Origin: an uncultured Acidobacteriota bacterium
Lineage (GTDB): Bacteria; Acidobacteriota; UBA6911
NCBI GenBank assembly: GCA_963827655.1
Contig: CAWHCF010000023.1
Span: 192,001 to 256,000, forward strand
Direction of reading: 5' to 3'
DNA length: 64,000 bases
Below, one piece after another: positions 7,588 through 62,132 of the stretch. Position numbers and translations under genes: made by a program. The notes beneath the pieces are model-generated. The model was not told where the DNA came from and ran no database searches. It worked only from the letters and a program-made list of their open reading frames with translations. Position 1 is the stretch's first letter; the number at the start of each line of letters is the position of its first letter.

Positions 7588-8518
7588 CAGAACGTGTGAA
7601 GAAATTGGTCTGATAGGGGTAGGGAGGATCGATTGAGTTCGATCCCCCCTCCCTCCGAACCGGACGTGCGGATCTCCCGCATCCGGCTCTCCAGTCGGTG
7701 GTTCACCTCGAAGAGGGAAGACGTGCCATTCAGAGGCGTTGGTCAGGATCCCACACCTGCGAATGTAACTGAAAACTTTCGCGATTGGTTTCCAGTTGCC
7801 CGGATGACCAAGGCTGTCAACATGCATCTCACGTGCGCTGCCAGTTCCGGCCACGGGGTTCAACCCGTCGCTCTCTCCGACTCGCATAGCCCTTGGGCAT
7901 TAGCGTCGGTTCGTCTTCTGTCAGTCACGCATCCATGCATCCACCTCCCTGCGCTCCTTTGCTCCAGGCCCATTACGGCCCTTCCCCGCTCTTATGAGCG
8001 CTCTGACTCTGCCCGCCTGGCTCTTCGGCTCTTCCGAGCATGAACTCCGGCTCCTGCTACGAGCAGGTCTCCCTGATTCACGCACTTGATCTTCCGATCC
8101 CTCCGTCTCCAACCACCAGTCAGTCCCCCAACGTCGCTTTCGCACGCTACCCCTCAGCTCGTCGAGTCTCCCGCTTTTGCGGGTCTAGGTTTTGCCTTAC
8201 GCCAGCAGGCTCGCCGATACAGACCGGCCGAATCGAGTTCGTTATCCTACGGATGGATCGTTCACCTCCTGCTGCTCCCCACCCCGCCTCACGGCGACGC
8301 AGTTGCATTCGGTTTCAGGCCGGAGAGCGTATGCCTGGAGAGGACTTTCACCTCTCTGATCATGTGCGCTTTAAGGCGCACTGGCGACGGGTCATAGACC
8401 CGTCGCAAGTAACGTGATAGCTGAGACTTAGCCTTAAAAAGTTCATTTGTGCTACTAGGGGGCCGGACGGGCTTGATAGCCCGTCCGAACATGTATCGGG
8501 TCGTTCTGCGACGGTCTC
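7588..8518. mobile_element. Non-autonomous MITE-like element (copy A) interrupted by group II intron 1
   Basis: Ends CAGAACGTGTGAAGAAATT and TTCTGCGACGGTCTC; internal hairpins GGACGGGCTTGATAGCCCGTCC and GCGACGGGTC-ATA-GACCCGTCGC; homologous to 35195-35557 and 40206-40330. Confidence 0.6.
7613..8381 (-). ncRNA. ORF-less group II intron, copy 1 (769 nt)
   Basis: 5' GTGCG; domain V GAGCCGGATGCGGGAGATCCGCACGTCCGGTTC (7657-7689, AGC triad); domain VI ending CCCTACCCCTAT; no RT ORF. Boundaries are supported by an uninterrupted homologous site at 35494/35495. Confidence 0.92.
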
Positions 8519-8548
8519 TAATGACCCGCGCCTCGGAACCGCCAGGAA

Positions 8549-9458: not shown

Positions 9459-10226
9459 ATAGGGGTAGGGAGGACCGATTGAGTTCGATCCCCCCTCCCT
9501 CCGAACCGGACGTGCGGATCTCCCGCATCCGGCTCTCCAGTCGGTGGTTCACCTCGATGAGGGTTGACATGCCATTCGGAGGCAGTGGTCAGGATCCCAT
9601 ACCTGCAAATGGAACTGAAAACCTTCGCGACTGGTCTCCAGTTGCTCTGATGACCAAGGCTGTCAACATGCATCTCGCGTGGGCTGCCAGTTCACGCCAC
9701 GGGTTGAACCCGTGGTTCTCTCCGACTCGCTTAGCCCTTGGGCACTCGCATCGGTTTGTCTTCTGTCAGTCCCGCGTCCATGCATCCACCTCCCTGCGCC
9801 CCTTTGCTCCAGGCCCATTACGGCCCTTCCTCGCTCCTATGGGCGCTCTGACTCCTGCACGCCCGGTTCTTCGGCTCTTGCGAGCATGAACACCGGCTCC
9901 TGTTACGGACAGGTCTCCCTGATTCACGCACTTGATCTTCCGATCCCTCCGTCTCCAACCACCGGTCAGGCCCCGACGTCGCTTTCGCACGCTACCCCTC
10001 AGCTCGTCGAGTCTCCCGCTCTCGCGGGTCTAGGCTTCGCCATTCGCTCGCAGGCTCGCCGACACAGACCGGCCGAATCGAGTTCGTTATCCTACGGATG
10101 GATCGTTCACCTCCTGCTGCTCCCCACCCCGCCTCACGGCGACGCAGTTGCAGTCGGTTACAGGCCGGAGAGCGTTTACCTGGAGAGGACTTTCACCTCT
10201 CTGATCATGTGCGCTTACAGGCGCAC
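9459..10226 (-). ncRNA. ORF-less group II intron, copy 2 (768 nt)
   Basis: Collinear, diverged paralog of copy 1; 5' GTGCG, identical domain V (9503-9535), 3' CCCTAT. Confidence 0.92.
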
Positions 10227-21127: not shown

Positions 21128-21301
21128 CGATTTACGATTGACGATTACGATTGACGATTGAAACTGCATTCGTCATTACGAACTGCTGCGCCCGTTATCC
21201 ACATGGATCTGGCTACGATTGACGATTTACGATTGAAACTGCATCGCGAACGGTTAGTCACCGAGCCCAATCGTAAATCGTAAATCGTAAATCGTAAATC
21301 G
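21128..21301. repeat. Inverted heptamer tandem-repeat element (CGATTTA/CGATTGA ... AATCGTA)
   Basis: Fills the gldA/polB divergent spacer; internal direct repeat ACGATTGAAACTGCAT twice. Confidence 0.85.
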
Positions 21302-21303
21302 AA

Positions 21304-23619
21304 ATGCGGGCATTCATCCTGAATCCCACCTATCGCGTCGTCCGGGGTACTCCGGAAGTCCATCTGTATAGCGTACTCGAGTCCGGCGAGCCCTGCGTGA
21401 TCATCGACGATCGCATGCGCCCTTACTTCTTTGTCCGCGAGGTCGACGAACCGAAGGTTCGAAAGCTGGCACCGTCTGCTGCGCTGGAACCCTGTAACTT
21501 GCGCAGCTTTGCCGGGGAAGCTGTTTTGCGGCTGGAAGTCTCTGTTCCCGGGGAGGTGCCGGCGTTACGGCAACGCCTGGAAGACGCAAGCGTGGAATGT
21601 TTCGAAGCGGATGTTCGCTTCGCCTATCGTTACATGATGGACCGGGGCATTCGTGGCTCATTCGAGGTGGAGGGTCCTTCCGCGCATAGCGGATCTCTCG
21701 GGCGCATCTATCGCAATCCGGTGCTGCATCCGTGTCCATGGGTCCCGCATCTCAAGGTACTATCGATCGATCTCGAAACAAGTCCCGATGGAGCAAGGCT
21801 GTACTCGGTCGCGTTTCACAGCCCTGACTTCAGCCGCGTACTTATCCTCCACGACTCGGTTCGGAAACAGGCCGATGTGGAAATCGTTCACTCCGAACCG
21901 GAGCTCATCCTGCGCTTTCTCCAACACGTCAGCCGGCAGGATCCCGACATCCTTACGGGGTGGAACGTCGTCGATTTCGATCTGGTCATGCTGGCACGCG
22001 CGGCCCGACGGCACGGGATGCGCTTCGCCATCGGACGCACGGACGACGATTTCGATTCCAGGCGGGAAGCGTCCTACACGCGCGAGTCACGAGCCCTGAC
22101 GTATGGACGCCTCGTGCTTGACGCCCAATCATTGATGCGAGGCGCCTTCATTCGACTTCAGGACTACAGGCTTGAGACCGCGGCGCAAAACATCCTCGGG
22201 CGCGGCAAACTGATCAAAGGCGCGGATCGCCGCTTCGAGATCGAGCGCCTTTATCGCAGCGATCCGCAGAGTCTGGTGCAATACAACCTGGAAGACGCCC
22301 GCCTGGTCACCGAGATTCTGGACCGGACCGGTCTGATCAATCTCGCCATCGAGCGGAGTCTACTCACCGGCATGCCGCTCGACCGGGTGAGCGCCGCTAT
22401 CGCTTCGATCGATTCGCTCTATCTTCGCGCCCTGAGGAGCCGGGGCGTGGTGGCGCCCTCGGTCGGCCGGGACGTCCGGCAAGCCAGCATCACAGGCGGC
22501 TACGTAATGGACGCCCAACCGGGACTCTATCGCAACGTCCTGGTCTTCGATTTCAAGAGCCTCTACCCCAGCATCATTCGGACCTTCAATCTCGATCCCC
22601 TGACGCTGGTTTCGAACGGCGCAGCGGCTGCAGACGCACTGGCCGCGCCTAACGGCGCGCGCTTCCGGCGCGACGTGCAGGGGATTCTGCCCGATCTGGT
22701 GGCAAAGGTTGCCGAGGAGCGCGAACAGGCCCGGAAGGCAGGCCAACACGTCAAGGCTTATGCGATGAAGATCTTGATGAACTCCCTCTATGGGGTCCTG
22801 GGTTCCGGCGCTTCCCGGCTGTTCTTTCCCTCGGTGGCCAATGCCATCACTTATTTCGGTCAGCTATTGATTCGGACCGCCGCCGAATTCGCATCGGGTT
22901 CAGGGTATCGCGTCATCTACGGCGATACCGACTCCCTGTTCGTCGATTCCGCCGAGGATGATTCGGAGCGCGCGCTCGCCGTCGCGCACCGCTTGCGCGT
23001 CAATATCGGGGACGCCGTAGCGGCTTTCGTGCGCGAACGATTCGCCTGCGAGAGCTATCTGGAACTCGAATTCGAGAAACTGTACGCGCGCTTTTTCCTG
23101 CCCGAGGTGCGCGGCGGAAAGATCGGGAGCAAGAAACGATACGCGGGCCTTGTGATCGAGGCGGACGGCAGCGAACGTCTCGAGTTCGTCGGCCTGGAGT
23201 ATGTGCGCCGGGACTGGAGCGATGCCAGCAAGAAATTTCAAAAGGAATTGTTGAACCTGGTCTTTCACGACCGGCCCGTCGCGGACCTGGTTCGAAGCTT
23301 TGTCGCGGATTTGCGCGCGGGCGGTCTTGATGGGCAGCTGGTCTATCGAAAGGCCGTACGCAAGGATCTGGAGGACTACACAAAAACCACGCCGCCGCAC
23401 GTTCAGGCGGCGCGCCGGCAGCGTCATCCGGGCAGCCGCCTGGTCGAGTATGTGATGACCCATCATGGCCCGGAACCGGTCGGAGAGGAGACGGCGCCGC
23501 TCGACTACGAGCACTACATCGAGCATCAGATCAAACCCGTCGCCGACGCGATTCTCCGGTTCCTCGGAACCAGCCTTGACGGCATATTGGATGCCAGGCG
23601 GCAGCTGAGCCTTTTCTGA
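21304..23619 (+). CDS. polB: DNA polymerase II (family B)
   Basis: Exonuclease motifs DLE, WNVVDFD, YNLED; polymerase motifs DFKSLYPSII, KILMNSLYG, YGDTDSLF; C-terminal QLSLF clamp-binding motif. Confidence 0.93.
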   Translation: MRAFILNPTYRVVRGTPEVHLYSVLESGEPCVIIDDRMRPYFFVREVDEPKVRKLAPSAALEPCNLRSFAGEAVLRLEVSVPGEVPALRQRLEDASVECFEADVRFAYRYMMDRGIRGSFEVEGPSAHSGSLGRIYRNPVLHPCPWVPHLKVLSIDLETSPDGARLYSVAFHSPDFSRVLILHDSVRKQADVEIVHSEPELILRFLQHVSRQDPDILTGWNVVDFDLVMLARAARRHGMRFAIGRTDDDFDSRREASYTRESRALTYGRLVLDAQSLMRGAFIRLQDYRLETAAQNILGRGKLIKGADRRFEIERLYRSDPQSLVQYNLEDARLVTEILDRTGLINLAIERSLLTGMPLDRVSAAIASIDSLYLRALRSRGVVAPSVGRDVRQASITGGYVMDAQPGLYRNVLVFDFKSLYPSIIRTFNLDPLTLVSNGAAAADALAAPNGARFRRDVQGILPDLVAKVAEEREQARKAGQHVKAYAMKILMNSLYGVLGSGASRLFFPSVANAITYFGQLLIRTAAEFASGSGYRVIYGDTDSLFVDSAEDDSERALAVAHRLRVNIGDAVAAFVRERFACESYLELEFEKLYARFFLPEVRGGKIGSKKRYAGLVIEADGSERLEFVGLEYVRRDWSDASKKFQKELLNLVFHDRPVADLVRSFVADLRAGGLDGQLVYRKAVRKDLEDYTKTTPPHVQAARRQRHPGSRLVEYVMTHHGPEPVGEETAPLDYEHYIEHQIKPVADAILRFLGTSLDGILDARRQLSLF

Positions 23620-23721
23620 GCAACTCGAGCTTCGACAAGGTTCTTAGGGTTTCTTCGTGTCTTGGTGTCTTAGTGGTATTTTTTCCTCGCGGCTCTAACC
23701 ACGAAGACACGAAGGAGTAGA

Positions 23722-29512: not shown

Positions 29513-29596
29513 CTTAGTGTTTCTTCGTGCCTTCGTGTCTTCGTGGTTAGAATTGTCTAACGAATACCACTAAGACTCAAAGACGCGAAGAAACAC
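29513..29596. repeat. Octamer-type inverted repeat family (CTTCGTGT / ACACGAAG), best copy of about nine
   Basis: Other full or half copies near 4185-4240, 15971-16026, 19804-19839, 23649-23714, 46210-46245, 48346-48372, 56182-56218 and 63711-63765. Confidence 0.8.
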
Positions 29597-34160: not shown

Positions 34161-35045
34161 CTACCGCACTGCAGACCCGGCCGACCTGGCGCGCGTCAGG
34201 AGATCGGGTGTGTTCAGGCGACGGCATGTTTCGGTAAAACTCGGGCGCGGTCCCCTCCAGCGAAGCTCTTCGATAGAATCGAAGACCGGCACATCGGTTC
34301 GCAACGTGGCCAGTGTGCGAAACAACATTGCTTCCTTCCAGTGACCGAACAAAACCTCGGAAAGCACCGGGCGGCTGCGGATCGACGGATGCCACTGCTT
34401 CCAATCTTTCGGAACGGCTTCCAGGTGTCCATAGCGAGAAAGGATCGCGGCAGCGGTCTTGTGCCCCCATCCGGGCAAACCCGGAAATCCGTCGGCGCTA
34501 TCGCCGATCACCGCCAGGTAATCGGGTATCGATTGCGGCTTCACGCCGAACTTGGCCTCGACGCCGGTCTCGTCGCGGATGACGTTGGTCCGGCGATTGA
34601 GTTGAACGATACGTGTGCCTTCAACACACTGGCTGAGATCCTTATCAGGCGTGCAAATGACGACTTGCCCTACGCCATCATCCTGCGCGGCTTTTCGGGC
34701 GGCGGAGGCCAGGGCGTCGTCCGCTTCATAGTAGACCATCGGCCAGACTACTACGCCCATGTCTTCGAGCGTTTCTTCGAGAATCGGGAACTGTGAAAGC
34801 AGCTCCTGAGGAACTCCCTCGCTGGTTTTGTAGCCAGGATAGAGATCATTCCGAAACGACTCCACCACGTGATCGGTTGCCACTCCAAGATGGGTTACCC
34901 CGCGCTCGATCATGGACAAAACGGAATACAGAACGCCGCGAACGGCGCCGACTTCTTGTCCATTCAGGTCGGCCGTAGCCGGCAGAGCGAAGAAGTGCCG
35001 GAACAGCTCATAGGTTCCATCGATCAAGTGAATTGTCGCTGGCAT
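34161..35045 (-). CDS. Stand-alone 5'-3' exonuclease / flap endonuclease
   Basis: LIDGTYELFR, SFRNDLYPGYK, EADDAL, DKDL, GDSADGFPGLPGWG. Confidence 0.9.
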   Translation of the reverse strand: MPATIHLIDGTYELFRHFFALPATADLNGQEVGAVRGVLYSVLSMIERGVTHLGVATDHVVESFRNDLYPGYKTSEGVPQELLSQFPILEETLEDMGVVVWPMVYYEADDALASAARKAAQDDGVGQVVICTPDKDLSQCVEGTRIVQLNRRTNVIRDETGVEAKFGVKPQSIPDYLAVIGDSADGFPGLPGWGHKTAAAILSRYGHLEAVPKDWKQWHPSIRSRPVLSEVLFGHWKEAMLFRTLATLRTDVPVFDSIEELRWRGPRPSFTETCRRLNTPDLLTRARSAGSAVR

Positions 35046-35194
35046 TTTGCGGCACAGGGTACCATCTTTGATCTGCGGATAGAAGCTGTCCGCGCCTTCG
35101 TACGCGAGTTTCGCACAGCCTGAGCGGACGTTATCGTGGCCGGCGCCCGATGGTTTCAGAGCCCAGCGCGGTTCCGAAGATTACCAGGCCTGAT

Positions 35195-35557
35195 GAGACC
35201 GTCGCAAAACCCCCCGAAACATGTGCGGACGGGCTATCAAGCCCGTCCGGCCCCTAGTGGCACAAAAGCTTTCATTGGTCATTTCTCATTCGTCATCTGT
35301 CATTTGTCATTAGTGCGTGTTGCGGGCCGGGTTTGCGCTCGCAGACTACGCGGGCCTTGTTACAATCCCTTCCCCCCATGAATGACAAATGAAAAATGAA
35401 AAAATGGCTAATGACTAATGACAGGAAAAGAACTTCTTAAGGGTAAATCCTCCCGATCACGTTACTTGCGACGGTTTCTGATGGCCCGTCGCCACAGGGG
35501 GCTCGGATAATGTCTGAGCCGATCTACAGGGGAGCGCGTATGTTGTGCAACAGTCTC
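35195..35557. mobile_element. MITE-like element (copy B) with terminal IRs and an internal heptamer-repeat insertion
   Basis: GAGACCGTCGCAAAA ... TTGTGCAACAGTCTC; flanked by CTGAT / ATCAG (AT duplication in a palindrome); same internal hairpins as copy A. Confidence 0.72.
35269..35425. repeat. Inverted heptamer-repeat element (TCATTTG ... AATGACA) flanked by an AAAAG direct repeat
   Basis: Absent from the homologous position of MITE copies A and C; AAAAG at 35264-35268 and 35426-35430. Confidence 0.8.
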
Positions 35558-35792
35558 ATCAGACCTGTGTGTCGAGCGCAATCGTGGGTTCGTACCCGTC
35601 CTTGCGATTTCTCTACGCGACCCAATAAATAATCGGCAGGCACCCCTGGATTTCCGCAAATTCTCCCTTCGTAGCATCGCCTGGTGTATGATTCGCACCG
35701 GTTAGTGGTTCTGACATGGGCGCCATTCCTGGAGGATAAACTGTCTCTCGATCCGAGATGCCTCCTGTTCACACTATGAAGGCAAGACCTCG

Positions 35793-36671
35793 ATGATCCA
35801 AAAGACTGCCGCTTTAGCAGTCCTCGTGTTCGCCGTCGCATCCGTGTCCTCCCGGGCCGATGAGGCGGGCCTCCGCCAAGCCGTCACCTTCTACGCTTCC
35901 TTCGACGCGGCTGTCCAAGGGGACTTCGGCGGCGGAGAGCTGACCCTGTCCACGCGCACCAACCACAAGACGGAAAAGGGCGCGTTCGTCTTCGAGAAAG
36001 GGTTCCCCGAGAAGGCGTTTCGCATCGCCCCGGGCAAGGGGATCTCCGGCGGCGCGCTGGAGGCCGTTGATGTCCTGCCCGATAACGGCCGCATCTTCTT
36101 CCCGGTCCGGGGAAACATCGCCTACCAGAAGGGGGGCTGGGGTGGGGCGGTCTCGATGTGGATCAACCACGACCCCGACACTCAGCTCAAGACACGCTTC
36201 TGCGACCCCGTGCAGATCACCGAGAAGGGGGCCGGCGACGGCGGCATCTGGTTCGACTTCAACGATGCCAAGCCCAATCGGAACCTTCGAATGGGCACAT
36301 TTCCGGCCGTCTCCGCGGGCCGGCAGCTCAAAGAATCGCGCGAGGCATTCTCGCCCATGGTGTGGGTCGATAAGCCGGGTCTCAAGGTGGGGGAGTGGCG
36401 CCACGTGGCGATGGTGTGGAACAACTTCGACACCGGAAAGAACGATGCCCGCGCCGCCTTGTATATCGATGGCAAGCTCGCGGGCGAGATCAAGGACAAG
36501 GACTATCCCATCTCGATGGATTGGAACCTGGACAAGGCCGGCATCTACATCGCGGTCAGCTATATCGGCCTCATCGATGAGTTCGCCCTTTTCAAGCGGG
36601 CGCTGACGGAAGACGAGATCCGTCTCCTGCGGACTCAACCGGCTGTGCTGTCGACTCTCAAGCGCCGCTGA
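35793..36671 (+). CDS. Secreted LamG/concanavalin-like jelly-roll protein
   Basis: Signal peptide; EWRHVAMVW, LYIDGK, GLIDEFALFKRALTEDEI. Confidence 0.8.
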   Translation: MIQKTAALAVLVFAVASVSSRADEAGLRQAVTFYASFDAAVQGDFGGGELTLSTRTNHKTEKGAFVFEKGFPEKAFRIAPGKGISGGALEAVDVLPDNGRIFFPVRGNIAYQKGGWGGAVSMWINHDPDTQLKTRFCDPVQITEKGAGDGGIWFDFNDAKPNRNLRMGTFPAVSAGRQLKESREAFSPMVWVDKPGLKVGEWRHVAMVWNNFDTGKNDARAALYIDGKLAGEIKDKDYPISMDWNLDKAGIYIAVSYIGLIDEFALFKRALTEDEIRLLRTQPAVLSTLKRR

Positions 36672-36984: not shown

Positions 36985-38527
36985 ATGACCCAGCAAAGCC
37001 ATTCGAAGGCACAACTCACCCTTTTCGGCGTATTCCTGCTTCTTCTCACTGCCGCCTGCACGAAAGAACCTACGCCGCCGGCGGCCACACCCCAGTCACC
37101 GGAGCGCCAGGCGACTCCAGAGCCGAAGGGCGCGTCCGACGTCCAGTCGCCGGAAAACCCCTTACTTGATATTGCCGCCCGGAAGTGGACCGGCGATTTA
37201 GACGGCATGATCGAGCGGCGCATGGTTCGTGTTTTGACCACGCCCTCGAAGACCACATTTTTCGTTGATCGGGGCACACAGCTTGGTCTGGTGCCCGACT
37301 CCTTCCGGTTGTTCGAGGACGACCTGAACAAGCGACTCAACAACAAGAACATTCGAGTGCACGTCGTGTTCATTCCGGTTGCGCACGACGATCTCATTCC
37401 GGCGCTGCTCGACGGGCGCGGCGACATCGTGGCAGCGACCAAGTTGATCACCGCCTGGCGCAAGGAGCAGGTCGACTTCGCGAACCCGACGAGGAGTGGC
37501 ATCTCTTCAATCATCGTCACCGGGCCCGGCGCGCCGCCGATTGCGACGGTCCAGGATCTGAGCGGCAAGGAGGTCTATCTTCGGACCTCGGACGTTTCGA
37601 CTCAGGGCGTCGAGCGGTTCAACGCCCAGCTTGCCGCGTCAGGCAAACCGCCGGTGAAGATTCGGCCGGCTCCGGAAGTGCTCGCCGACGAAGACATCCT
37701 CGAGATGGTCAACGCGGGTCTGGTCCCCATGACGATGGTAGACGATTACATCGCACAGTTCTGGCAGCAGATCTTCCCGGGAATCGTGCTCAACACAGCT
37801 GCCGCCGTCCGGACCGACGGCCAGACGGCGATGATGATCCGCAAAAACAGCCCGAAGTTGATGGCCGAGCTGAACGCGTTCGTCGCCCGTTACCCGGAAG
37901 GATCGCTGCAGCGCAACGTGCTGCTGCAGAAATACCTGAAGAGCGTCAAGTACGCCAAGGCGGCGACAGCGAAGGAGGACCTCTCGAGGTTCAATCAAAC
38001 CGTTGAGTTCATACGCAAATACAGCGACCAGTACAAGCTCGACTATCTGCTCATGGCCGCTCAGGGATACCAGGAGTCGCGAACTCGATCACAGCAAGAA
38101 GAGTCCGGTGGGAGCGATCGGTGTGATGCAGGTGATGCCGAAGACCGGCGCAGAGCTGAAGGTCGGCGACATCACACGCCTCGATGCCAACGTCCACGCG
38201 GGTGTGAAATACATTCGCTTCATGATGGATCGCTATTACGCCGACGAACCGATGGATTTACTCAACAAGGGCCTGTTCACATTCGCTTCCTACAACGCCG
38301 GGCCCGCCCGTATCCAGCAACTCCGCGACCGCGCCGCAAAACGCGGTTTGGACCCGAACAAGTGGTTCAACAATGTCGAGATCATCGCGGCCGAGAACAT
38401 CGGCCGGGAAACCGTGCAGTACGTCTCGAACATCTACAAGTACTACCTCGCCTACAAAATGCTCAGCGAGCAGAAGCAGGAGCGGTTGAAGGCCAAAGGG
38501 GGACTTGAGGCGAACAGCAGGCAGTAG
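36985..38527 (+). CDS. MltF-like lytic transglycosylase (SBP + SLT domains), frameshift near 38080
   Basis: Lipobox LTAAC; WTGDLDGMIERR; AQGYQES; continuation GAIGVMQV, ASYNAGP, ETVQYV. Confidence 0.85.
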
Positions 38528-38572
38528 GCAGAATTTCGTACTGCCTACTGCTTGCCGCCTACTGCCTGCTGT
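38514..38572. repeat. Inverted heptamer repeat (GCAGTAG / CTACTGC)
   Basis: CAGCAGGCAGTAGGCAG...CTGCCTACTGCTTGCCGCCTACTGCCTGCTG; contains the mltF-like stop codon. Confidence 0.75.
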
Positions 38573-38579
38573 TGTGCGT

Positions 38580-40057: not shown

Positions 40058-40330
40058 CTGGAGTGCGGTAGTTTGCTGAACTTGCTACCGACTTAGTTTG
40101 GCGAAGCTTGCTTCGCCATGCTCGCCCGCGAGAAGGTGTGAAAAATTCAGCGAACGGCTCTCGATTGACCGGCGTGCCCTTTGGCTTTTGTGGCGTGGGT
40201 CATCAGAGACTGTCGCAAAACTCGCTCGGTTCATGTGCGGGCGGGCTATCAAGCCCGTCCGGCCTCCGAGATGGCAATGAACTTGTTCGAAATACGTCCT
40301 TCGATCGGGTTTACTTACGACGGGCCAAAT
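40058..40330. repeat. Cluster: GGAG-REP half, IS1182-like end (40130-40148) and truncated MITE copy C (40206-40330)
   Basis: CTGGAGTGCGGTAG..., GGCGAAGC-TT-GCTTCGCC, GAGAAGGTGTGAAAAATTC, GAGACTGTCGCAAAA...GGGCTATCAAGCCCGTCCGG. Confidence 0.65.
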
Positions 40331-40682
40331 CAGATCCGCGCGTTTAGACGTCAGCCGATCTGCCGATTATTCACTGGGATCGCGTAAAGAAATTGCAAGG
40401 ACGGCGTACGAACCGACGGTTGCGCTTCGACGCACAGGTCTGATGACCTGCGCCACAGACCCAATTCATTCCGAGCTTCTCACAGCCCATGAGCGCCGAA
40501 GGTGCTACTGTCTCAATCGCAGTGCAGTTATAATGCGGCCATGATTTCGCGCGATCCACGGCTGAAGCCCTGGGTCGCCTCAGTCCAATGCGCAGCATTC
40601 GGAGCGGTTAATGGAATTGACATGGAACGCCATTCCCGGACCCGACCGGTCGAGGTCTGGCCCAAGATAGAGTTCCCCGGCT

Positions 40683-46141: not shown

Positions 46142-46290
46142 GATTCTCCTCCAATCGCTTCGGAACGATGCCCGCACAGCGTGGGATGATACACCATCAC
46201 GGAGAGATTCCTGGTGTTTCTTCGTGTCTTTGTGTCTTCGTGGTTATAAGGTTTTCATCCGATATAATGAAAGCAGCCAGGAGGACAGCG

Positions 46291-48346: not shown

Positions 48347-48394
48347 CCACGAAGACGCAAAGACACGAAGAGAAGCGCGGCATTACAGACTCTA

Positions 48395-53034: not shown

Positions 53035-53140
53035 ACAGCAGTAAGCAGCAGGCAGTAAGCAGTATGCAGTAAGATGGACCAGTCTGCCTGCTGCCAGCCG
53101 CTTTTCTGCCTACCGTTACTTACTGCCGCCTGCTGCTGCT
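53035..53140. repeat. Inverted heptamer repeat (GCAGTAA / CTGCCTA type)
   Basis: CAGCAGTAAGCAGCAGGCAGTAAGCAGTATGCAGTAA...CTGCCTGCTGCC...TTACTGCCGCCTGCTGCTG. Confidence 0.75.
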
Positions 53141-58996: not shown

Positions 58997-59104
58997 CGAT
59001 TGCAGATTCTTGCGGATTGCGGATTGCAGATTGCGGATTGAACAAGGAGCACGGCCTCCCGACTGCTTGTCAATCTGCAATCTGCAATCCGAAATCCGCA
59101 ATCG
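58997..59104. repeat. Inverted heptamer repeat (GATTGCG / CAATCCG)
   Basis: GATTGCAGATT...GCGGATTGCGGATTGCAGATTGCGGATTG ... CAATCTGCAATCTGCAATCCGAAATCCGCAATC. Confidence 0.85.
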
Positions 59105-61779: not shown

Positions 61780-61841
61780 CGACTTGTCTTTAGTGAAGAT
61801 TCGGCGCTTATGTTCGTGCTTACGAGAATTTTGTTCACGTT

Positions 61842-62053
61842 AGAAGCCAGAAGTCAGGAGTCAGGAGCAAGAATACCAGTGAGACAGATTGATTCTGTGG
61901 CCTCCGCGAGTTGCCTCCGGCTCGCTGACCTAGGATTTTTCTGGCACACGGCTTGGGTTACGGCAGACTGGAAAGTGGGCCGCCTGCTGAATGCAAATGC
62001 AATTCTGACTTCCGGCTCCTGACTTCTGACTCCTGCTTCTGACTATCTGACTT
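61842..62053. repeat. Inverted heptamer repeat (AGTCAGG/AGTCAGA ... CTGACTY)
   Basis: AGCCAGAAGTCAGGAGTCAGGAG ... TTCTGACTTCCGGCTCCTGACTTCTGACTCCTG. Confidence 0.8.
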
Positions 62054-62132
62054 CCAATCCCGCTGCTTTTGCCGGGATATCAAGGGCGCAGCCCTTCCCC
62101 GGTTAGTGTCTTCGCGGTTGATTCTGTTAACC

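Follow-up and report, generated by a model that had tools for sequence, protein, structure and literature searches.

A gene-less hairpin of 157 bp with heptamer-repeat arms has been inserted as a pre-formed unit into a MITE, and the composite has multiplied with its carrier to 12-13 copies in a single genome. The insertion lies in the window, by which we mean the whole 64,000-nucleotide stretch that was analyzed, from an uncultured Acidobacteriota bacterium with a genome assembly of 8.18 Mb in 53 contigs and 59% G+C. We label the contigs of this assembly C1-C53; the window is on C23 (its positions 61780-62126 are C23:253780-254126). The same hairpin occurs at loci outside MITEs, and its class is linked to genes for four-helix-bundle proteins.

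In the filled MITE, copy B, positions 35260-35268 read GCAC-AAAAG, followed by the 157-bp block (35269..35425), a second AAAAG, and AACTTCTTAAGG. This is the layout given in a first-pass annotation of the window, whose readings of the empty copies A and C also agree with the letters. By direct reading, the left AAAAG is at 35264..35268, where empty copies have one 5-mer, and the right AAAAG is at 35426..35430. All features of copy B are given on the plus strand. The 5' arm (35272..35311) has 5.7 units of TCATTNN (TRF period 7, score 52), and the 3' arm (35381..35422) is made of NNAATGA units, reported by TRF as two period-7 rows at 35381-35403 and 35403-35422. Between them is a non-repetitive spacer of 69 nt (35312..35380) common to other copies of the hairpin family. 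A repeat search found inverted arm matches of 17-23 nt with 77-94% complementarity inside the block. Folded as single-stranded DNA, the block reaches -28.9 kcal/mol versus -18.9 +/- 2.9 in 200 shuffles (z -3.45), none of which fold as well, and its stem shows periodic internal loops. The 69-nt loop contains no ORF, of PF05635/TIGR02436 or otherwise, and does not resemble the interior of the gene-bearing TCATTNN cassette. Lacking a four-helix-bundle ORF in its loop, the copy B hairpin is at most a non-autonomous relative of an IVS-like cassette.

The carrier is small, non-coding, and dispersed in many copies with terminal inverted repeats. The whole composite spans 35185..35567, with outer arms of 26 nt at 35185-35210 and 35542-35567 that are 85% complementary. 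Within it, a 13-nt inner inverted repeat (35195-35207 and 35466-35478, 92% complementary) bounds the core unit at 35195..35478, which would be about 137-150 bp if empty. The core includes a conserved hairpin with a 10-bp stem of 100% complementarity (35226..35249), present in three copies in the 64-kb window versus zero expected, and the RNA fold of 35195-35500 has a z of -4.99. The composite sits in a 747-bp gap between ORFs at 34161-35045 (minus strand) and 35793-36671 (plus strand), not in a 23S rRNA helix, the setting from which RNase III excises IVS. Searching the genome with a profile of the MITE core, nhmmer gave 136 matches, of which 82 are near full length. Two empty copies were read in the window. 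Copy A (8380..8530, minus strand) has AAATG at the site, and the reverse complement of about 8380-8530 reads GCACAAATGAACTTTTTAAGG; copy C (about 40195..40340, plus strand) is diverged and reads GGCAATGAAC. An Rfam search had no match on the MITE or on the hairpin. Copy A is flanked by two minus-strand matches to the Rfam group II intron (domain V/VI) at 7613-7691 and 9459-9537, with scores of 57.9 and 57.5 bits.

To compare filled and empty forms, left and right halves of the MITE were paired across the genome. This gave 50 copies without the insert and four intact copies with 149-162 extra bp; the 157-bp block is absent from all 50 aligned empties. The contrast drawn in the first pass between a filled and an empty form holds up, but what was taken for one filled allele is a subfamily with 12-13 members. 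Intact or degraded members are at C23:489429, C1:88307, C53:83870, C53:29515, C41:203606, C20:96179, and C33:19227, truncated members are at C10:253067, C36:35986, C50:69595, and C38:13811, and a rearranged one is at C20:111-208. All have one identical site and the arms and spacer in common. The borders of the insert are sharp and fall at the identical base in every filled copy, with insert lengths of 116-168. Blastn with the spacer gave matches within MITEs at C23:489261, C53:83714, C53:29360, C1:88139, C10:253183, and C36:35818. Among the 136 nhmmer matches no second heptamer insertion site was found, and other interrupted copies hold unrelated inserts. MITE copies at C49:434360-433990 and C2:182620-182330 are interrupted elsewhere by ~200-bp G+C-rich repeats other than heptamer arrays. 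Across the 50 aligned empties, the site most often carries TACTG (11), followed by AAATG (10), AAAAG (7), and GAAAG (5), with other 5-mers in 17. As AAAAG is the 5-mer in seven of them, an empty form with a single AAAAG exists, and with copy B it makes a clean filled/empty pair in which both junctions can be read.

The empty form was also seen in Logan contigs from four soil or rhizosphere runs, in which joints skip from 35251/35252 to 35426 with 13 letters between; their sides are at most 30 nt within a 136-copy repeat and are not assignable to this locus. One 1491-nt X1 contig matches 34174-35093 and then continues for 466 nt unlike the window. A metagenome scan for the orthologous neighbour gene gave 0 matches, and the nearest relatives compared belong to other genera, with about 68% identity in the flanking gene.

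To ask whether one insertion or several gave rise to the subfamily, a maximum-likelihood tree was built from MITE sequence without the insert (89 rows, 8 filled and 81 empty, over 139 alignment columns). The filled rows need six changes on the best tree, while forcing them into one clade costs 7.4 log-likelihood units (p-AU 0.368). Given its low resolution, the tree is evidence for neither one nor many origins. A single insertion followed by MITE amplification of the composite would be compatible with it at that p-AU, as would a few repeated insertions. The one site and one hairpin in all filled MITEs suggest there was perhaps just one, old event, and for the junction analysis the filled copies are close to a single event. 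In the filled copy at C53:83863 the 5-mers differ, AAAAG to the left and AAATG to the right; either a simple mutation or a second event, in an AAATG-type MITE, could account for this. The composite shows that heptamer hairpins can multiply inside another mobile element, which will confuse copy counts and age estimates.

Outside MITEs, the hairpin was found at C46:78209-78365 with 90.6% identity over 160 bp. Arms and spacer together occur at the non-MITE loci C46:78209, C18:26242, C36:246749, C46:12786, C46:117235, and C26:289565, and spacer blastn matches beyond MITEs are at C46:78261, C46:117235, C46:12743, C18:26295, and C26:289519. The copy at C36:246749 is immediately 3' of a stop codon. 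Since arms and spacer recur together at unrelated loci and 50 aligned MITEs are without the block, we agree with the first pass that the hairpin was inserted, as a pre-formed unit, instead of arising by slippage within the MITE. Three metagenome orthologues of the C18:26242 locus (L136, L138, and L142) differ in arm unit number and in a spacer deletion. Arm unit numbers vary among copies and between this genome and orthologue L142, suggesting slippage works after insertion and does not make the unit. Scanning metagenomes with the spacer pattern returned 10 loci, five of them chance matches in coding DNA, three the C18:26242 orthologues, and two the same MITE-plus-hairpin composite as here; there were no new hairpin contexts among the 10.

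The non-MITE copies bear on the origin of the AAAAG pair. At C18:26242 and C46:18176 a right arm is followed without a gap by CAGG, AAA[A/T]G, and a left arm, and C46:12786 has the same layout of right arm, linker, and left arm with a different linker. C46:78209 is a permuted copy, with CAGG-AAAAG left of the left arm and not right of the unit. Directly 5' of the left arm, AAAAG or AAATG is found in three of eight non-MITE contexts, and in those three the end of a right arm precedes AAA[A/T]G; the other five carry different bases. The contiguous arrangement indicates that AAAAG is part of the element's own joint. The segment in the MITE corresponds to exactly one tandem or permuted period cut at AAAAG, so one AAAAG would derive from the element and one from the target. 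TCATTNN is the sole arm family with both polarities (20 vs 10), as tandem units would predict. No circular or tandem donor extending past about 1.3 units turned up. A chance match over 5 bp is unlikely, by inference about 1 in 1000 for this A-rich string, and the AAAAG pair is more likely a shared joining site or microhomology than a transposase footprint.

The explanation we tentatively favor, with a probability approaching one half, is that one cassette period was joined a single time into the middle of the MITE core, at an AAAAG common to cassette and MITE, and was then amplified by hitch-hiking. A TCATTNN cassette in tandem or circular form would have supplied the period (left arm, spacer, right arm, CAGG, AAAAG), and the target would be the middle of the MITE core, at about profile position 72 of 137 and between the inner inverted repeats. 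An AAAAG pre-existing in the MITE may have directed the join through its 5-bp identity with the element joint, either by template switching guided by microhomology or by recombination at a short core. Joining would have occurred once or very few times, MITE transposition would have multiplied the composite to 12-13 copies, and slippage would have altered the arm unit numbers afterwards. With a single insertion site, this joining route rests on one junction pair; the copy B finding is useful but provides a single junction within its class.

The first-pass annotation had read the AAAAG pair as a 5-bp target duplication from a staggered cut and extended this to heptamer arrays in general. We set the borders of 218 of the genome's 230 heptamer hairpins by maximal complementarity and compared them with shuffled flank pairs. 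Flanking direct repeats of at least 4 bp at zero offset are present at 0.5% of the 218 hairpins versus 0.7% of the shuffled pairs, and with offsets up to 4 the values are 10.1% versus 9.2%. No flanking duplication accompanies the clean copies outside MITEs at C46:78209 and C36:246749, and nothing is duplicated at the hairpins of the ribosomal-protein operon described below. As a rule, the staggered-cut duplication is not supported; other pairs without a flanking duplication, which the annotation had itself named as evidence against its claim, are largely what we found. When further filled/empty pairs were sought through the 80-bp flanks of 647 arrays or hairpins, only complex cases were recovered besides the MITE (units 97, 104, and 124), none of them with a simple readable junction. 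For copy B itself, an enzyme making a 5-bp staggered break, with the hairpin a transposable element and AAAAG a true target-site duplication, would account for AAAAG being single in seven of 50 empties and double in filled MITEs and for the unit being present in several unrelated contexts. We consider it unlikely, as the 218 hairpins show no excess of flanking repeats and AAAAG adjoins the left arm in the tandem copies outside MITEs. A search of the genome found no transposase or recombinase linked to TCATTNN arms; the single Y1_Tnp (RAYT-like) match (C35:41745-42074) has a 25-bp inverted repeat in its flanks and no TCATTNN arms beside it.

Slightly less probable again is recurrent site-specific insertion at AAA[A/T]G by an IS200/IS605-like system or at a small integrase-type core, with the MITE entered more than once. 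Elements of the IS200/IS605 type insert without duplication on the 3' side of a fixed tetra- or pentanucleotide, and the six changes on the best tree, the AAAAG/AAATG pair at C53:83863 (as expected for crossover within the core at an AAATG-type target), and the 5-mer 5' of the left arm in three of eight non-MITE contexts are all consistent with such a process. Against it, one clade is not rejected, the 5-mer after a right-arm end in those three contexts is more simply a tandem joint, the remaining five contexts differ in bases there, and no linked recombinase was found in the genome. Replication errors are known to delete hairpins that lie between short direct repeats, and long palindromes are unstable. 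If the ancestral MITE carried the hairpin, precise deletion between the AAAAG repeats would leave exactly one AAAAG, matching seven of the 50 empties; the other 43 have a different 5-mer. The 5-mer at the site varies among MITE subfamilies, which argues against all empties being deletions of a filled ancestor. A tree clade of 38 members contains zero filled copies and the hairpin occurs outside MITEs with no adjoining MITE sequence, and so we regard an ancestral hairpin as improbable. Growth of the arrays within the MITE by slippage and fold-back copying would explain why unit numbers vary among copies and orthologues, and loops are indeed locus-specific in two other hairpin families, GACGATT and GCGGATT. 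At copy B, however, an in-place slippage origin is contradicted by the spacer of 69 nt, absent from empties and common to non-MITE loci, and by the sharp borders at an identical base in all filled copies; we give it very little credence.

The first pass had also proposed looking for genes enclosed by heptamer arms as candidate mobilisers, and genes enclosed in this way were found. PF05635 matched 12 places in the genome, corresponding to 11 loci, and 10 of the 11 have inverted short-period arrays on each side, the remaining locus on one side only. Six intact proteins from these loci are TIGR02436 four-helix-bundle proteins, one of which adds a weak Avd match. Every arm type has a gene-bearing copy, including a TCATTNN-armed gene at C26:212975-213445. 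The AGAAGYC family forms a graded deletion series running from the full gene (C51:53430-53810) through growing internal deletions to arms alone (C16), with a gene-less member in the window at 61780..62126. In 12 AGAAGYC copies the outer ends beyond the arms are conserved, with TTAG or CTAG on both sides, and the interiors of 52 to 491 bp are nested deletions of the four-helix-bundle gene. With this graded series from gene to gene-less, the gene-less majority look like non-autonomous derivatives, and by analogy the series mirrors the relation of non-autonomous to autonomous elements. The link extends to relatives' loci in more than 10 phyla: at least five inverted 9-mer seeds lie between the flanks in 52 of 77 loci versus 49 of 3000 control intervals, and seeds are spaced 7, 14, or 21 in 45 of 77 versus 3 of 3000. 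In a stricter inverted-seed test, 24 of 77 loci versus 1 of 3000 controls were positive. On our reading, the copy B hairpin may be a gene-less member of an IVS-like heptamer cassette class in which full-length elements have a four-helix-bundle (TIGR02436/PF05635, Avd-like) gene in the loop, though one with no sequence similarity to the gene-bearing TCATTNN interior.

Heptamer hairpins are abundant across the genome. We counted 540 period-7 arrays with at least four copies, versus 47 for period 6 and 16 for period 8. The commonest heptamer units are GACGATT (313 arrays), GCGGATT (93), and GTCATTT (37). Among 871 merged arrays, 454 fall into 230 inverted pairs while direct adjacent pairs number only 30; 230 of 280 adjacent array pairs are inverted. 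As a class they are over-represented at period 7, intergenic, and arranged in inverted pairs, as expected of STRR-like heptameric intergenic repeats. Three families have a nearly fixed arm polarity, with ratios of 110:2, 42:0, and 11:0. Further heptamer hairpins in the window abut gene ends at 21128-21305 (GACGATT), 38510-38575 (GCAGTAG-type), 53037-53140 (AGCAGTA-type), and 59000-59103 (GCGGATT). The GACGATT hairpins at C20:38265-38463 and C23:147748-147944 have 120-128-nt spacers that are long palindromes, making them hairpins nested in hairpins.

How often hairpins have related spacers differs by family. Considering only hairpins with spacers of at least 25 nt, a related spacer in another hairpin was found for 7 of 18 TCATTNN and 6 of 7 AGAAGYC hairpins, versus 5 of 74 GACGATT and 0 of 35 GCGGATT hairpins. 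Spacers are thus locus-specific in 69 of 74 and 35 of 35 hairpins of the two largest families, and whole-unit transposition cannot be the general route; sharing of arms only in these families rules out simple cut-and-paste or copy-and-paste in that role. The point of the first pass that such arrays are inserted units stands for the hairpin inserted in copy B but not for most hairpins in the two largest families, which are not whole-unit copies. At the duplicated locus C14:1804 and C45:3576, the flanks are 96-97% identical and the arms equal, and the spacers read as unrelated. Together with the operon slots below, these patterns could reflect either very fast loop turnover or arms installed around local sequence.

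The ribosomal-protein operon at C49:303300-306830 (locus L102) has GACGATT hairpins filling the S19-L22, S17-L14, and L5-S14 gaps from the stop codon to the ribosome-binding site, with one lone arm in the L29-S17 gap. In 30 genomes of the same family and class, the S17-L14 slot holds inverted period-7 arrays in four, with four different units in four genera, and is at most 20 nt in five. The S19-L22 slot has inverted period-7 arrays in 3 of 28 genomes and is at most 20 nt in 5 of 28. One short-spacer row in each slot count is L121 of the unpublished genome G028, and without G028 short slots number 4 of 29 and 4 of 27, respectively.

Heptamer arms might for the most part be written in place by a sequence-specific machinery, which would lay genome-specific 7-nt arrays symmetrically and with fixed polarity around any sequence that separates a stop codon from the following ribosome-binding site. 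If so, whole-unit movement, as in MITE copy B, would be rare and secondary. A possible writer is the cognate four-helix-bundle protein, acting on a fold-back template together with a polymerase or reverse transcriptase; Avd, a relative of the four-helix-bundle protein, is a reverse-transcriptase cofactor. Writing of this kind would be compatible with locus-specific spacers, fixed polarity, and no duplications, as well as with the C14/C45 duplicated locus and the four unit types in one operon slot. As a general account of the arms it remains doubtful, and for the copy B junction we retain the joining of one cassette period at AAAAG.

Among long simple repeats, heptamers are the most over-represented in many bacteria. 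The suspicion that rRNA intervening sequences are mobile elements dates back to the early 1990s. In Nostoc, work by Elhai and colleagues in 2008 reportedly described small dispersed repeats nested in MITEs and heptamer arrays and read them as mobile from filled/empty comparisons. There, the small units are reported to be inside the heptamer arrays, whereas here the heptamer hairpin is the guest. In our literature search, which took in few subscription journals, no paper tied heptamer hairpins to four-helix-bundle genes outside rRNA, none reported a heptamer-hairpin filled/empty junction, and none gave a mechanism for heptamer repeats or rRNA intervening sequences. The junction analysis is new, and the class of gene-plus-heptamer hairpins is apparently absent from the literature.

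The closest described system is the IVS of the Coxiella burnetii 23S rRNA, a stem-loop with an S23p ORF and adjacent tandem heptamers of strain-variable copy number; the paper cites an old idea that the ORF serves mobility (PMC4990558). Copy B resembles it in the long complementary stem and tandem heptamers, and full-length loops of both carry a four-helix-bundle ORF (S23p in Coxiella) with suspected mobility. Unlike the Coxiella IVS, copy B is gene-less and in an intergenic MITE instead of rRNA, in a genome with ~230 hairpins. Rehm et al. (2015) described GGGAATC heptamers in Xanthomonas, with 70-75 inverted pairs per genome, and heptamers in Nostoc, and in the sections considered they did not find a mobile-element link to the repeats (PMC4692102). 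For the TAACTGA repeats of Beggiatoaceae, MacGregor et al. speculated on mobility and a repeat-binding protein (PMC4679880). The hairpins here are like these heptamers in being of period 7, intergenic, over-represented, often in convergent pairs, and present also in ribosomal-protein operons; unlike in those papers, which in the portions consulted make no mobile-element or protein-gene link, there is a filled/empty pair, a gene deletion series, and several unit families (PMC4692102, PMC4679880). REPIN-RAYT systems (Bertels and Rainey 2011, PMC3116915) are similar in having short palindromic doublets, a long hairpin, non-autonomous units, and hundreds of intergenic copies. They differ from the present hairpins, which have tandem-heptamer arms, no fixed head tetranucleotide, and a gene for a four-helix-bundle protein instead of an HUH transposase; no TCATTNN arms flank the single RAYT-like gene of the genome.

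Two further repeat arrangements were observed. At C35:41647-42862, the Y1_Tnp gene and a TCAGCNC-armed unit (C35:42459-42798) lie inside a perfect 25-bp inverted repeat found nowhere else in the genome; a paralogous TCAGCNC unit at C22:242217-242416 has like arms and a spacer about 245 bp shorter. The window also has period-8 arrays of the GAAGACAC type, detected by TRF at 23648-23675, 29523-29545, 46219-46242, and 48348-48371.
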